Assembly: GCA_000165345.1 (NCBI GenBank)
Contig: CM000436.1
Span: 384,001 to 448,000, forward strand
DNA: 64,000 bases
Direction of reading: 5' to 3'
The position numbers and the translations under genes were made by a program. Shown one piece after another: positions 2,906-49,498 of this stretch; the first letter of the stretch is position 1; each line of letters begins with the position of its first letter. Below the pieces are notes generated by a model that was not told the DNA's origin, did not search any database, and saw nothing but the letters and a program-made list of their open reading frames with translations.

Positions 2906-4613
2906 ATGTTATTGGGATCGCATTTAAGAAAAAATCCTATAGAAATCCGAGATTTACAAAAACCATTTAAAAATAGAAATAATATTGGTAAGTTAATCCA
3001 TCAAATTTTTTTTTTTATTATTTAATAATAACATAATTTCAGAATACGATCAAAATCCATACAATGAAAATGTTTTTCAAGAATGCTCTTATGTATTATC
3101 AACTTATGACGATAGTTCTCTCTTTTCATTAAATTTGAACTCATTAAGCATCAATTTATTTAGAGAATATGTTACGGATAGATTGGCAATTCTTCATTTT
3201 ATTGACTCTAAATCGAAGCTCGAAGATAATAATACAAGAACTTTAACAGATTCAACAAATAGATCGTTATTAGAAAAACTTCTTTCTGAAAAAGGATTTA
3301 AATTATTTGATTCTTTAACTCCAATTAATAAAACAAGTCCATCGCATTTAGAAAATTGTTGGAGAAAAGATCTTTTAAGTCATTTCTTACTTAAGCTATG
3401 CTTTATGAACAATAAAGAAAAACAAGAATGGTTTATTGAACAAGAAATTAAATTACTTTTATTTAAATTATCCACAATAATTAATAGTAATTTATTCAAT
3501 CAAAAAAGAGATAATATTAAAAGCAGTAAATCATTTATTATTGAAAAATTACTCAAAATGTATGGCGTCAATTATCCTATTTGGAATTTAGACCAAATTA
3601 AAAATCAAAATAACATTAATGATTCTGAAACTCATCAAGCAAAAAAACTTTGGGAAGATGCTGTTTCTGTTATAACAAATGGACATCTTATTAAAAGATT
3701 ATTTAAAATACCTTTTTGGCCAGATGGATTTAGATTTATTAAAAATAGAAAATACTTCATTAAAGATGGAATATGTTTTATTCCTGACACTGAAATTGAA
3801 TCATTATTTATATATAAATATAAAAAAGAACTAATTAACTCATTTATTAATTTAAAAGAAAATGAAATAATATTAGAAAAAACTATCCTTTCAGATCAAA
3901 GAGTTTCATCATTAATTCGAGAAATTTCAGAATTTTATTTCACAAGTAATGATTTTAGAGGTGGAGGATCATTATTATCATCACCATTTAATTCTTTATC
4001 AGAAAATCAAGCTATTGAAAACTTTAAATTAGATACTTCAAATATATATCAAGTTTATCTTTCTTCATTTCCATTGTGTATGCGTCATCTATTTGAAAGT
4101 TTAAAAAAAGATCATCATTTAAAACATTGGAGTCGTCTTCAACTTTGGTTATTCCTTAAAGGATGTGGAATGAAACTTGAAGAACAACTTTCTTTATGGA
4201 AGTCACTTTGGACTGATGCTAATTCTTTTGATAAAGAAATTAAATATAATATTCGTCATGCTTATGGGCAAGAAGGAAAAAGAAGTAATTATTCACCTTA
4301 TCCTTGCAATAAAATTATTAATGGATTACCTCTTCCTGGAAATGGACAAAATCATGGATGCCCTTTTAAAACTTTCGATAATTATCCATTACAAAAATTA
4401 TTACAAACTTATTATGGTCATATTATACCCAATGAAGATATTAAAAATATTACACAACTTTCTAAATCTGGTCATTATCAATTATCTTGTATACAATTAT
4501 TTAAATCATTGCATTTAAAATCTGACTCTGATGGTATTGGTAATCATCCAAATTCATATTTTAAAAAATCTATTCAAAATCATATTAATATTGAAAATAA
4601 TAAAAATAATTAA
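2906..4613 (+). CDS. DNA primase large subunit (PriL/PRIM2); probable two exons: 2906..2987 and 3043..4613
   Basis: Strong similarity to eukaryotic PriL: FLLKLCFMNNKEKQEWFIEQEIKLLLFKL resembles human [29 protein letters not shown]. The conserved FPLCMRHLFESLKKDHHLKHWSRLQLWLFLKGCGM, IRHAYGQEGKRSNYSPYPCNKII and the Fe-S cluster HGCPF are present. The track ORF begins with TTG at 3135. There is an upstream ATG at 2906, a canonical donor GGTAAGT at 2988, and an acceptor TTTCAG ending at 3042 (55-nt intron). Joining them keeps the frame (phase 1) and gives MLLGSHLRKNPIEIRDLQKPFKNRNNIG|EYDQNPYNEN.... Confidence 0.8.
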
Positions 4614-9468: not shown

Positions 9469-11727
9469 ATGTTAATGAATGGATATGAAAGAAGAGTATT
9501 TGTGGAGTCTAAAGAGTGTGAGGCTGGTATAAGGTTTCTTAAAAGATTATCAAAAGAGTTAGAAAGGCAAAATGGAAACAATAAGAATAATAAAGAAGGG
9601 ATAATCTTAGCAATGGCTGGAATTTTGGAAAGAAATAGACAAAGATTAATAAGAGAAACTAGAGATCAATTGTTAAATTTAAAAACAAGAATAATATGCG
9701 AAGATGAAATAGAAGAAATTCAAAGAAAAGATATAGAAAAAAGTAGAAAGAAAATGAATGTAGAAGAGGGAAATAGAAAAATTAAGAAAAGTATTCTTAA
9801 AGAAGAAAAAAAAAAGGAAATAAAAGAGGGAATAAATAAATCAAAATTAGTATTTGGGGAATTAGATGAAGAAAAAAACCGTGAAGATAGATTTATAATT
9901 AAGATAGAAAATGGGAGGAATGAAACAGGATCTTGGGAAGATCCTATTCCTAGTAATAATGGCGTTCCATATGATCATTTTGAAAGAAGGATATATGATA
10001 AATATGTTGACTATTGGAGGAATTCCAAGCTATCAGTACCGTTTTCAACATGGATTAGCGGAGAAAAAATGGATAGAAAAAGATCATCATCAATCATGTC
10101 CTTTGAGTTGATTGAAGAGAATAGCAGCATAAGTTGTAAAAGTATTCAAGAAGCAATATATAGAATAAGAAGATTTGAACAAGATTTTCAGGCAATTCCA
10201 AAAGAGATAATTTTTCCACTCATAGAAAAAGGAATATTAATAAATAATTCCAAAAATACATTGGATAATTTCTCTGGAAATACTTGGAAAGATAATAATT
10301 ATAATCATTTAGAATTTAATAGAGCAAAAATAAAAAATCAAGATATCATTGAAAAGAATCAACTAAATTTACAATCTTCATTTAAAGTACCTCAAAGTTT
10401 GTTTTTTTCAATGGTAATAAGTGATCATGAGAATATGATTCATAGTAAATTAAGTAAAACTGGAATAATAACTAATGAACAAATTAAAGGAAATGATAAA
10501 AAGATGACTAATTTAGTTATTAACAATAATGATTCTTTATTAGAAAAAGATAATATTAATAAAAAACAATGTAATTGTGACTTTTATAAATTAAGACAAA
10601 AGTTTATTGAAGAATATAATTTATATGAACTTATTGGGTCAAATTCAAATCTTGAAAAATTAGATCAATCAATGGAAAGTAATTTGAGATTATGGATGGG
10701 TGCTTATTATTTACCACGTAATGATAAAAGGGCTCGAGGTGGAGAAGATGGATGGTTTTTATCTGAAGATTTACAAAGTATGGGAGTAGCTGATGGAGTT
10801 GGAGAATGGGAAGATTTATCAGGAAAAAGTGCCCGTGTATTTTCAAATTCTATAATGAAAAATTCACTTCAATATATCAAAAGTAATAGAGATCGAAGTT
10901 TAGAGAAGCCTTCTATATTAGCAAAAGATTCATTAAAAGTAGGTCTTGATCATTGTGAAAAAAGTGGTGTACATGGCGCAAGTACTGCACTTGTAGCTTG
11001 TTTTGATCATTATTCTGGAAATATTGGATTTGCTAATATGGGAGATAGTGGAGCACTTGTTCTAAGAAGATTACAATTTGATACTGGTAAGTTGGAGATT
11101 GTTAGAAGGGTTAAAGAAATGCAACATGAATTTAACTGTCCATATCAATTTGCAAATCTACCTCCTGAACATGAATGGGATGAATTAATTGAAAAAGGTT
11201 TTCATGATATTGTAAGACTTGCAAAGATTGAAAAAAAAAACAAAGAAGATTCAAATATTATGGATGATAAATATTCAATGCAGTTAGCTTGTGATGATCC
11301 TGAGTTATCTCAATTATTAGAAGTTCCATTAAAAGAAGGTGATATGGTTATTCTTGGCACTGATGGTCTTTTTGATAATTTATTTGATTTTGAAATTACC
11401 AGCATTTCTGGTTTATCATTTTCTCCTATTGAATCAAAACTTTTTTATAACTGTCTAGATTATACTACTACTCCAATGGTAATAGCAAAATCAATTGCTT
11501 TATCAGCATATTACAAATCACTTGATCCATTTTCCAAAACTCCTTTTGCAAATCAGGCGAAAAGATTTTATAGTGGTGGTAAAAACTCTCTTTTTGAAAG
11601 CCAATCTTTTTCTGGGGGTAAAGAAGATGATATTTCTGTTCTGGTTGCTTGGGTTGTACATAAAGATGATTTTGAAACTTTAACTAAAAATTCACCTCAT
11701 TATTGCGATATTTCAAAAAAGTTATAA
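9469..11727 (+). CDS. PP2C-family protein phosphatase, PTC7/PPTC7-like, with a roughly 440-aa K/E-rich N-terminal extension
   Basis: The C-terminal domain carries the PPTC7 signatures GVADGVGEW (canonical GVADGVGGW), GASTALVA, MGDSGALVLRR, NCPYQF, GTDGLFDN and GKEDDISVLVAWV. The ATG at 9469 reads MLMNGYE. Confidence 0.8.
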   Translation: MLMNGYERRVFVESKECEAGIRFLKRLSKELERQNGNNKNNKEGIILAMAGILERNRQRLIRETRDQLLNLKTRIICEDEIEEIQRKDIEKSRKKMNVEEGNRKIKKSILKEEKKKEIKEGINKSKLVFGELDEEKNREDRFIIKIENGRNETGSWEDPIPSNNGVPYDHFERRIYDKYVDYWRNSKLSVPFSTWISGEKMDRKRSSSIMSFELIEENSSISCKSIQEAIYRIRRFEQDFQAIPKEIIFPLIEKGILINNSKNTLDNFSGNTWKDNNYNHLEFNRAKIKNQDIIEKNQLNLQSSFKVPQSLFFSMVISDHENMIHSKLSKTGIITNEQIKGNDKKMTNLVINNNDSLLEKDNINKKQCNCDFYKLRQKFIEEYNLYELIGSNSNLEKLDQSMESNLRLWMGAYYLPRNDKRARGGEDGWFLSEDLQSMGVADGVGEWEDLSGKSARVFSNSIMKNSLQYIKSNRDRSLEKPSILAKDSLKVGLDHCEKSGVHGASTALVACFDHYSGNIGFANMGDSGALVLRRLQFDTGKLEIVRRVKEMQHEFNCPYQFANLPPEHEWDELIEKGFHDIVRLAKIEKKNKEDSNIMDDKYSMQLACDDPELSQLLEVPLKEGDMVILGTDGLFDNLFDFEITSISGLSFSPIESKLFYNCLDYTTTPMVIAKSIALSAYYKSLDPFSKTPFANQAKRFYSGGKNSLFESQSFSGGKEDDISVLVAWVVHKDDFETLTKNSPHYCDISKKL

Positions 11728-12155: not shown

Positions 12156-12801
12156 ATGAATTTTATTAGGAATTTTATTAAAGGAAGAAGAGGTATATCG
12201 CAAATTCGATGGAGGAAAGAAACCTCTTTAGAATCAGAAATTGAAGATAAAGATAATGATTCCAATGAAAATGAGATAGAATTTTGCAGAAAATCAAATT
12301 ATCCAAAAAATTCATGTGAAGCACAGTGGATGTTGGTAAGTTCTGAGAAATATTATTAAAAAAAATTGGTGAGACAATTTGAATAATTAAAGAGATAATT
12401 TTTAGAAAAATATAAATTATCTTTTTTTTTTTTGTTGTTAATTTTTAATAATATTTACACAAAAATATAAATAAATATATAAATACTTGAAAACTTTTTT
12501 TTTATTATTCTAGTTGTATTCCTGTATAACTTCAATGGAAGATCATCCAAGCGAGGCTAGTCTTAAATCTGCAAAAGATTTTATTAGAAATATTCCAGAT
12601 CAATGTAAATTTACTCAAATAGAAGATACATTTTCAGAAGGAATAAAAGATTTTGATAACGCTATTTCCACTGCAAACTCAAAGAGAGAACTTCTTCTTT
12701 TGTTATGTACAATTGAAAACAAATGTAGGCATAAGTTAGGAAAGCCATTAGTCTCTTGTAATTATTCTGAGATAATGAAAAGATGGTATAAAAAGGATTA
12801 A
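12156..12801 (+). CDS. Small Cys-containing hypothetical protein of about 155 aa; two exons, 12156..12335 and 12514..12801
   Basis: Two track ORFs (67 aa and 95 aa) join exactly in frame. Exon 1 ends ...CAG TGG ATG TTG, immediately followed by the canonical donor GTAAGT (12336-12341). A pyrimidine-rich acceptor ...TTATTATTCTAG ends at 12513, and exon 2 starts at 12514, which is the first base of the second track ORF (phase 0). The intron is 178 nt and AT-rich. Confidence 0.6.
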
Positions 12802-12922: not shown

Positions 12923-14176
12923 TTACTGAATTTCTCCATTAGATTTAGAATAATTTATTAGATTTTCATCCAATGATCCGATTTGAGATACCTTTCTGTA
13001 TTTGCTATTCTTAATTAATTGATCATAATTGTTTGAAGAGTTGAAATGCTCATTATCATAGAAATTATCATTAATTTCAGGTTTTTTACCACTATCATAC
13101 TCTAAAGAAGATGAGCCTGATATTGTAGAATCATGATCATAATAGTTTTCTTGTTGAATAGGTTCTTGTTGTTGTAGCTGGTGTCCAAAGGTTATATTAA
13201 AGCTTTCATTCAAATCAATATTTTTATTTGGAATAAATTTAAAAAGATTTGAAAAAGAATAAATAGCAGATCCTCCAATTGTCATAACCAATCCCAAAAT
13301 AGTTGAAAATTTAAGCTCTTCGTTATTTAATAAAACTCCAATTAAAGTTTGAGCTCCAGATTTAACATAGCCTGTTAGATTATAAGCTATAGGAGATGTA
13401 GTATGAATACACCATATTATAATTATCCCAAGGAAGAAATTCAATATACCACTAATTAAAATAGGGCCAAATTTAATTATAAATTCTCCAAAATCTAAAG
13501 TATATAACTCAATGAATGCATTGTGTTCACCAAATATAAAGATTGGAATAGCTGCTAAAAATGAAGTAGTAAGAGCATTATACCAGTAAACTTGGGATTC
13601 ATCATTTATTTTCTTTGAAACACTCTTTATTTGAACAGTATATATTGATTGAAATAAAGAAGAAGTAGTTCCTGATAATATTCCATAGAATCCTAAAGTA
13701 GATGAATCAAGAGAACCAATAATAAATCCCAATATAACAATTCCACATCCAAAAATACATATAGTTGAAATTTGCTGCTTTAATATAAAAATTGAAAAGA
13801 TTATATTAAAGAATAGTGTCAAAGACCTTGTAATTGCATATGATGACATTGGTACATATTTCAAGCAAAGATTGGATAATAATATAAATATTGTGCAAGA
13901 TAAAGACATAGGAAAACAGTCTTTAGCTTTTTCATATTCAATTGATGGTTTTGAAACCAAATTATCAATCCCAAATAAACTCAAGGTTGCATATGCTATT
14001 AAATAGAATATCATTCCACATACTTGTTGTATCCATGTTGTAAATAGTGGATAACTAAAACTCCCAATAAATATTCTTTTATTCAAAAAAACCAAAGCTA
14101 CTGATACAAGGCCATAAAGTATCAATGATAATGCTTTTTTGAATTGAAATGTTTCATTCTCTTTACCCTTTTCCAT
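12923..14176 (-). CDS. Nucleotide-sugar / triose-phosphate transporter family (SLC35/TPT) multi-pass membrane protein
   Basis: About 10 predicted transmembrane helices. It has the TPT/NST hallmark ...LVFLNKRIF... (FLNK motif) and a hydrophilic C-terminal tail. The track start at 14257 is GTG; the first in-frame ATG is at about 14176 (MEKGKENETFQF...). Confidence 0.6.
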   Translation of the reverse strand: MEKGKENETFQFKKALSLILYGLVSVALVFLNKRIFIGSFSYPLFTTWIQQVCGMIFYLIAYATLSLFGIDNLVSKPSIEYEKAKDCFPMSLSCTIFILLSNLCLKYVPMSSYAITRSLTLFFNIIFSIFILKQQISTICIFGCGIVILGFIIGSLDSSTLGFYGILSGTTSSLFQSIYTVQIKSVSKKINDESQVYWYNALTTSFLAAIPIFIFGEHNAFIELYTLDFGEFIIKFGPILISGILNFFLGIIIIWCIHTTSPIAYNLTGYVKSGAQTLIGVLLNNEELKFSTILGLVMTIGGSAIYSFSNLFKFIPNKNIDLNESFNITFGHQLQQQEPIQQENYYDHDSTISGSSSLEYDSGKKPEINDNFYDNEHFNSSNNYDQLIKNSKYRKVSQIGSLDENLINYSKSNGEIQ

Positions 14177-14639
14177 TTTTAACTTCACAACTGTGCTTTT
14201 ATCCAGCACAGAGTGATTCTTTGCAGATCTTCTTAATCTAATTTTTTCAATATTCACAATTAGTGGTTTAGGAGTACTTAAGCCAATTAATTTTTACTCT
14301 AAATACTTATCTAATTAAAAAAGAAGGAAAAATGACCTTTGGCGCTTCTCACATTAAAATTTTATTATCAAATAATAATTGATAAATATATATATAAATA
14401 TATATATATTTTTTTGTATGCAACTATTAACTCTCTTAATCTCACTTTGCTCCAAGTTCACTTTTTTTATCCTTTCCTCTTTACACCTAAGCTAAGAATT
14501 CAATATTCTTTTCATTAACTGTTATATTATTTGCCATACATATTTTTCTTTTTACCAAAATAAAAATAATAATTATAATAATATTTAAATTTATTGATTT
14601 ACGTGTAATTAAAATTATTAATTTTTTTGTTTAATATTC

Positions 14640-49190: not shown

Positions 49191-49424
49191 ATGGAATACC
49201 AAATATAAACTAGCCATTATATATTTAAGTAACTTTATATTAGAAATATAATACTTATAATACAATTCTAAAAATAATAATTATAATAATAAGACTATTT
49301 ACTTGTATTTATCATAATCTTTAATCTCCAATGTCTAAATTTTTAAATGTTATATAAAACTAATATTATTCTATAACAATAATGTATAAAATTTCGAGTG
49401 AATTTATTTATATATAAAAAAAAG

Positions 49425-49498
49425 CGCCGCCACTGGGGATCGAACCCAGGACCACATGGTTAAGAGCCATGCGCTCTACCTAGCTGAGCTATAGCGGC
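49425..49498 (-). tRNA. tRNA-Lys (anticodon CUU)
   Basis: Reverse complement: GCCGCTA TA GCTC AGCTAGGTA GAGC G CATGG CTCTTAA CCATG TGGTC CTGGG TTCGATC CCCAG TGGCGGC G. It folds as a 7-bp acceptor stem (one G-U pair), D arm with A box TAGCTCAGCTAGG, anticodon loop CU-CUU-AA, and T arm with B box GGTTCGATCC. An oligo-T run (plus-strand aaaaaaaa at 49416-49423) follows the 3' end as a Pol III terminator. Confidence 0.9.

Follow-up and report, generated by a model that had tools for sequence, protein, structure and literature searches.

The window, by which we mean the whole stretch of 64,000 nucleotides analysed here, is AT-rich (19–38% G+C per 2-kb window) and carries eukaryotic housekeeping genes. 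On its plus strand two short adjacent open reading frames are found between a gene for a PP2C-like phosphatase of 752 amino acids (9469..11727, +) and a convergent gene for a TPT-family sugar-phosphate or nucleotide-sugar transporter (12923..14257, −), and these 5′ and 3′ neighbours were used as synteny anchors. The first frame corresponds to exon 1 at 12156..12335 (+; 180 nt, 60 codons) and the second to exon 2 at 12514..12801 (+; 95 codons plus the TAA stop at 12799–12801), with a spliceosomal intron of 178 nt and phase 0 between them (12336..12513, +). The ATG at 12156 is preceded by an in-frame stop two codons further 5′, and the MNFIRN start is kept in the orthologues. The 5′ donor GTAAGT lies at 12336..12341 (+), and the polypyrimidine tract with the 3′ acceptor, CTTTTTTTTTATTATTCTAG, at 12494..12513 (+), the AG itself being at 12512–12513. 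The G+C content of the intron is 13%, compared with 29% and 30% in the exons, and stops occur in all three of its frames; unspliced, the frame running past 12335/12336 ends at a TAA at 12357–12359 and gives an ORF of 67 aa. The joined product has 155 aa with seven Cys (positions 44, 54, 64, 91, 125, 131, and 142). The sequence-only reading had placed the donor at 12336 and the acceptor at 12513/12514 with the phase conserved, had described an AT-rich intron of 178 nt running from GTAAGT to TTCTAG, and had expected a product of about 155 aa with several Cys; its coordinates are correct to the base, and the intron and the product are as it described them.

The stop codons of this gene and of the transporter gene are 121 nt apart, and the convergent 3′ UTRs are therefore very short or overlapping. 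The transporter ORF has 444 aa when read from a GTG, compared with 417 aa in the public C. parvum model, and its start is probably Met28 at 14176. Elsewhere in the window, the ORF of the DNA primase large subunit (PF04104; 2906–4613, +), for which the list gives a start at 3135, opens with 90 residues that look coding and precede the first Met. A candidate 5′ mini-exon of 82 nt with an ATG (2906–2987), followed by a 55-nt intron at 2988–3042 (GTAAGTTA...TTTCAG, 15% G+C), joins it in frame to give 550 aa. The ORF at 58664–63901 (−; 1745 aa) has 69 residues before its first Met and, lying close to the edge of the window, may likewise belong to a gene that has a short 5′ exon. A tRNA scan found a single tRNA in the window, tRNA-Lys (CTT) at 49424–49498 (−), and nothing relevant to the two-exon gene.

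It should be noted that the splice motifs taken by themselves are no better than chance, and that homology and comparative evidence carry the intron call. The hexamer GTAAGT is not enriched in the window, with 15 occurrences on the plus strand compared with about 22 expected from base composition, and an AG directly 5′ of an ORF is automatic whenever the preceding closing stop is TAG.

Over 100% of its length, the 155-aa protein from the joined exons shows 100% identity to the annotated C. parvum proteins KAL5366874.1 (CPHLJ_8g1435), QOY39895.1, WKS79393.1, and WRK33892.1, for which the databases give the names “ERV/ALR sulfhydryl oxidase domain containing protein” and “Sulfhydryl oxidase.” The gene in the window is the same gene as CPHLJ_8g1435, with the same exons, intron, and neighbours; its orthologues include C. 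hominis CHM_8g1435, C. ubiquitum cubi_03370, and C. muris CMU_025360. It is located on C. parvum chromosome 8, under locus tags ending in _8g1435, between the PP2C-like and the TPT transporter genes. Another C. parvum assembly (1.34-Mb chromosome) has the same two-exon gene with the same neighbours and identical exons, and differs within the gene by two single-base homopolymer indels, both of them intronic. The database cluster to which the protein belongs also holds near-identical proteins of 155–156 aa from C. hominis, C. meleagridis, and C. tyzzeri, together with two pieces from C. hominis TU502, XP_665774.1 (67 aa) and XP_665775.1 (88 aa); such a two-piece annotation was seen only in this 2004-era C. 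hominis TU502 set. The two-exon model is present in GenBank for C. parvum, C. hominis, C. meleagridis, C. tyzzeri, C. ubiquitum, C. canis, C. xiaoi, C. ryanae, C. muris, C. andersoni, and C. serpentis. The intron had been taken to be newly recognised, which these 11 species contradict: the gene model and the Erv/ALR label are already known, and GenBank and UniProt carry them for at least ten Cryptosporidium species besides C. parvum itself. From its accession series, QOY39895.1 appears to stem from the IOWA-ATCC annotation, and in the IOWA-ATCC re-annotation 100% of the annotated introns had RNA-seq support (Baptista et al. 2022; PMC8744675). An earlier revision of the C. parvum annotation, made by means of cDNA and RNA-seq, brought in 451 further introns and 74 further genes (Isaza et al. 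2015; PMC4637869), and its supplement file contains cgd8_1430 and cgd8_1440 and no entry for this gene.

The protein had also been described as having no homology to a known family, and this does not hold. It matches the Pfam family PF04777 (Erv1/ALR) with 38 bits compared with a threshold of 27.6 (E = 2e-9), and the match extends over residues 56–151, corresponding to profile positions 2–92 of 93, and crosses the splice junction at residue 60/61. The coding span of this Erv/ALR domain is 12321..12786 (+), split by the intron after residue 60; the junction is spanned by the peptide AQWML/LYSC, within a tryptic peptide around NSCEAQWMLLYSCITSMEDHPSEASLK. Exon 1 codes for a basic N-terminus, an acidic linker, an F-C-x9-C motif, and the first part of Erv helix 1 (C-E-A-Q-W-M-L), whereas the remaining part of the Erv/ALR four-helix core and helix 5 are encoded by exon 2, with the motifs NIPDQC, SKRELL, and C-x2-E-N-x-C-R and the Cx16C pair C125/C142. 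A phmmer search against PDB sequences returned yeast Erv1 (4e0h, E = 8e-4), followed by ALR and Arabidopsis Erv1. In an AlphaFold2 (AF2) model built on eight Cryptosporidium sequences, residues 53–152 have a pLDDT of 85–94, and residues 1–52 are of low confidence and disordered. When this model was compared with the PDB using Foldseek, all 24 of the 24 best matches were Erv-family oxidases, in the order yeast Erv1, Arabidopsis Erv1, ALR, and Erv2, followed by the enzymes of mimivirus and ASFV, and the best had a probability of 1.0, a target-normalised TM score of 0.70–0.81, and an rmsd of 2.3–2.5 Å over about 100 residues. The protein is thus predicted to have the Erv/ALR fold, a four-helix bundle with a fifth helix.

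Yeast Erv1 (3w4y, 4e0h), rat ALR (GFER; 1oqc), and Arabidopsis Erv1 (2hj3) have this helical-bundle fold and PF04777 in common with the C. parvum protein, at an identity of only 16–26% to the solved Erv structures. Erv1/ALR and the C. parvum protein share the Trp of helix 1, the Asn of the HN motif, L-G-K-P, the Cx16C pair, and the C-terminal R-W, and both have a flexible Cys-bearing arm outside the core, although the arm carries a Cx9C in the C. parvum protein (C44-x9-C54) and a CxxC in Erv1/ALR. In contrast to Erv1/ALR, the C. parvum protein lacks the flavin-side redox CxxC, has WxxLY in place of WxxLH, and has ENxxR in place of HNxxN.

To compare the intron between species, we used the orthologous loci of C. 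ubiquitum, C. canis, C. xiaoi, C. ryanae, C. serpentis, T. gondii, and E. tenella, in which the exons were solved against the annotated proteins; in the numbering of the locus sequences the coccidian orthologues span 1001–2730 (T. gondii) and 1001–2365 (E. tenella). Both neighbouring genes are conserved in the five Cryptosporidium species added here. In six Cryptosporidium species, as well as in T. gondii and E. tenella, the intron occupies the same codon boundary (AQW[ML]L/L[YW], phase 0). It measures 178 nt in C. parvum, 160 nt in C. ubiquitum, 138 nt in C. canis, 136 nt in C. xiaoi, and 140 nt in C. ryanae, and the donor is GTAAGTT in each of these five intestinal species (5/5). The gastric C. 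serpentis has an intron of 69 nt with the donor GTGAGTA, and the corresponding introns, the first of three in either coccidian gene, are of 208 nt in T. gondii (donor GTAAGTTG) and 201 nt in E. tenella (donor GTGAGTAG). A YAG acceptor is present in the orthologues of all eight species. The lengths differ between species by non-multiples of three, and reading through the junction leads to a stop after 2–11 codons in all five species that were checked. Nucleotide identity to C. parvum is 65–92% for the exons and 50–62% for the introns, and since shuffled introns reach 46–55%, the similarity of the introns between species does not exceed what chance would give. GT and AG borders with a pyrimidine-rich 3′ end, a restored reading frame, and a conserved position at which both the sequence and the length (69–208 nt) drift are the features of a U2-type GT–AG intron. 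Because its position and phase are common to Cryptosporidium and the coccidia, the intron is ancient and was kept by Cryptosporidium. The second and third coccidian introns are both of phase 2 and follow ...FPP/RVESRR and ...PC/RYSEL; they are absent from every Cryptosporidium species examined, which indicates that these two downstream introns were lost in Cryptosporidium.

These comparisons also bear on the notion that the locus holds two independent small genes, one of 67 aa ending at the TAA at 12357–12359 and one of 88 aa starting from Met68 (ATG at 12535). The separate GenBank proteins from TU502 are in keeping with it, as is the match to PF04777 that the 88-aa piece retains on its own. 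However, the 88-aa product would be without helix 1 and without W58, a residue of exon 1 that is present in every Erv sequence of the alignment, canonical or divergent, the rest of helix 1 being encoded in exon 2. The motif F-C-x9-C-x-A-Q-W is contiguous with the core in the coccidia and Perkinsus, the read-through tail is unconserved with a stop site that varies by species, the GT...AG is found at one codon boundary in eight species, and later annotations of the same species adopt the spliced model. We consider two genes very improbable, and rejected them on the conserved intron position, the conserved exon-1 motif, and the loss of helix 1 that they would entail. The view of the sequence-only reading that the two ORFs are exons of one spliced gene is borne out by the identical annotated proteins, by the intron position in eight species, and by selection on both exons, as described below. 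The splicing call is thus supported, with high confidence, by the comparative evidence and by the annotation of other groups.

To explore the wider distribution of the protein, a profile of the Cryptosporidium proteins was searched against 1.84 billion representatives. Only 28 proteins were found at E ≤ 0.001, canonical Erv proteins appearing only at E of about 1e-4, and a word-indexed profile search added little over the exhaustive one. The matches include the gastric C. muris, C. andersoni, and C. serpentis, the coccidia Toxoplasma, Neospora, Hammondia, Cyclospora, Cystoisospora, Besnoitia, and Eimeria, as well as Babesia bovis, Hepatocystis, Perkinsus olseni, Amoebophrya, and one sequence from a marine transcriptome (MMETSP). 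Judged by these sequences, the clade spans the Myzozoa, with Cryptosporidium, coccidia, piroplasms, haemosporidia, Perkinsus, and the dinoflagellate relatives Amoebophrya. A CxxC is absent from the Erv core of all 32 clade members, and the C. parvum protein has none at any position, whereas the list of matches ends with two canonical Erv sequences that carry CEIC and CKDC. In an alignment with yeast Erv1 and rat ALR, the clade counterpart of the YPCxxC of Erv1/ALR is [FI]PDQC followed by non-Cys residues; in C. parvum it aligns to DQCKFTQ, in a register that is uncertain by one residue around the lost CxxC. Throughout the clade WxxLH is replaced by WxxL[YW] and HNxxN by [EQ]NxxR, the C. parvum substitutions being H to Y62, H to E128, and N to R132.

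Other positions are strongly conserved. The clade has kept W58, N129, the LGKP region, R150-W151, and usually the Cx16C pair, and C54, Q57, W58, D89, C91, N129, R132, R150, and W151 are near-invariant. Of the positions that usually contact FAD, C. parvum has retained half (W58, N129, K134, R150, and W151). An F-C-x9-C just 5′ of helix 1 is common to Cryptosporidium, the coccidia, and Perkinsus. The Cx16C of the C. parvum protein is formed by C125 and C142, and since these two positions are lost jointly in five clade members, they behave as expected of a disulfide pair. The annotated C. ryanae protein has an Arg in place of C142 and retains C125, which could be either a real loss or an error of sequence or annotation. 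The evidence for a pairing of C54 with C91 is weak, because one clade member lost both and another only C54. The N-termini also vary between lineages: those of Cryptosporidium form a basic, amphipathic stretch in which acidic residues are few or lacking over the first 14–21 positions, and five sarcocystid orthologues start with MGN[ST/A][AL]GA, plausibly an N-myristoylation signal. These N-termini suggest that targeting differs between the sarcocystids and Cryptosporidium.

The absence of the catalytic CxxC could suggest decay, in which case the interruption at 12336..12513 would be a decayed insertion and the locus a pseudogene, or a non-productive locus with a retained intron. Selection argues against this. 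In comparison with C. ubiquitum and C. canis, exon 2 has a dN/dS of 0.08–0.09 and exon 1 one of 0.10–0.43, and from these values both exons are coding and under strong purifying selection; moreover, 35 alignment columns are invariant across the Cryptosporidium species, and the splice signals are intact in all species. The CxxC-less state is itself clade-wide and accompanied by conserved motifs of its own, and as it is common to the whole Myzozoa clade, the loss of the CxxC is old and maintained and not a recent decay. We therefore rejected a pseudogene, which is extremely improbable given the purifying selection, the intact splice signals, and the clade-wide lack of the CxxC.

The best explanation, to which we assign a probability of roughly 0.93, is a single two-exon gene with a 178-nt phase-0 GT–AG intron and an Erv-fold product of 155 aa; this product probably lacks canonical catalysis. 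The spliceosome would remove the intron and so join ...C-E-A-Q-W-M-L to L-Y-S-C..., rebuilding helix 1 of an Erv/ALR-type bundle. The resulting protein would consist of a disordered arm of about 52 residues, first basic and then acidic, a Cx9C just before the core, and an Erv/ALR core of about 100 residues. The clade has kept the Erv fold and has lost the redox-active CxxC, with the two FAD-contact His replaced. The location of the CxxC and of the two His in Erv, ALR, and Erv2 structures is at the flavin, which is the basis on which the FAD-contact residues were assigned. For this reason we infer that the clade does without the standard FAD/CxxC oxidase reaction, and that the C. parvum protein would not act as a sulfhydryl oxidase of the canonical FAD/CxxC type. 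In the databases, “sulfhydryl oxidase” is thus probably too strong a name, an over-annotation, since the catalytic CxxC is absent throughout the clade. Flavin binding may still occur, half of the usual contact positions being kept.

The same gene model could also encode a working FAD-dependent sulfhydryl oxidase, which would then be the functional Erv1 of the Cryptosporidium mitosome. A PF04777 score above the gathering threshold, a confidently predicted Erv fold, and the retention of W58, N129, K134, R150, W151, and the Cx16C pair are in line with such an enzyme, and the conserved C54, C91, and C131 could supply the redox chemistry. It is nevertheless unlikely, if worth keeping in mind, given that the CxxC is missing both from the C. 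parvum protein and from the core of 32 of 32 clade members, that both FAD-contact His are substituted clade-wide, and that the clade stands sharply apart from canonical Erv proteins (the 28 matches at E ≤ 0.001 in 1.84 billion representatives). Of the features that mark mitochondrial Erv1 in the Mia40/Erv1 relay, the protein has a Cys-bearing arm (C44-x9-C54) and lacks the active-site CxxC. Furthermore, a 2011 comparison of Fe-S machineries gives no Erv1 symbol for C. parvum in its Table 8 as rendered (PMC3044749); this gap also fits a gene that the original annotation missed owing to its intron.

Under the two-exon model with a product devoid of canonical catalysis, the role of the protein would be either that of a non-catalytic Erv-fold scaffold or partner protein, or one that depends on a re-wired Cys pair. 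The near-invariant C54 and C91 would be the best candidates for such a pair, because both are predicted to lie at that end of the bundle which normally holds the CxxC: C54 at the start of helix 1 and C91 at the end of helix 2 should share that end with the lost motif. The basic N-terminus of the Cryptosporidium proteins would be compatible with mitosome targeting, which is our guess. A precedent for a non-catalytic Erv fold is the degenerate psi-Erv (pseudo-Erv) domain of QSOX, in which the fold serves a structural role and both the CxxC and flavin binding are gone. Psi-Erv is, however, a domain of a multidomain secreted enzyme, in which it is paired with an active Erv, whereas the C. parvum protein is free-standing and has its own motifs.

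In the literature, reviews describe the apicomplexans as having no Mia40 and Toxoplasma as having three putative Erv1 homologues, and note that the oxidoreductase for the CHCH-domain (twin-Cx9C) proteins is unknown (PMC9490983, PMC10653836, PMC6115763). Our search, which covered the literature in part, returned no mention of cgd8_1435 and no publication on this gene or on the CxxC-less Erv clade; for Cryptosporidium in combination with Erv1, sulfhydryl oxidase, or mitosome it returned general surveys only, and Erv goes unmentioned in a Toxoplasma mitochondrial proteome paper and in a 2025 mitosome paper.

For genome annotation, the locus is a clean example of how one intron can hide a gene, which the TU502 annotation turned into two hypothetical proteins. 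For the biology of these parasites, the sequences raise the possibility, which we hold tentatively and as somewhat short of even odds, of an apparently undiscussed Myzozoa-wide Erv-fold clade whose role is independent of the classical disulfide relay, as a scaffold or with a C54/C91 redox centre. If this is true, the C54/C91 centre could act in mitosome or intermembrane-space biogenesis in lineages that have a substitute for Mia40. Cryptosporidium keeps the protein although early surveys scored both Erv1 and Mia40 as absent, and a CxxC-less Erv-like protein retained in a mitosome-bearing parasite would, as a modest lead, be a reasonable candidate for follow-up.
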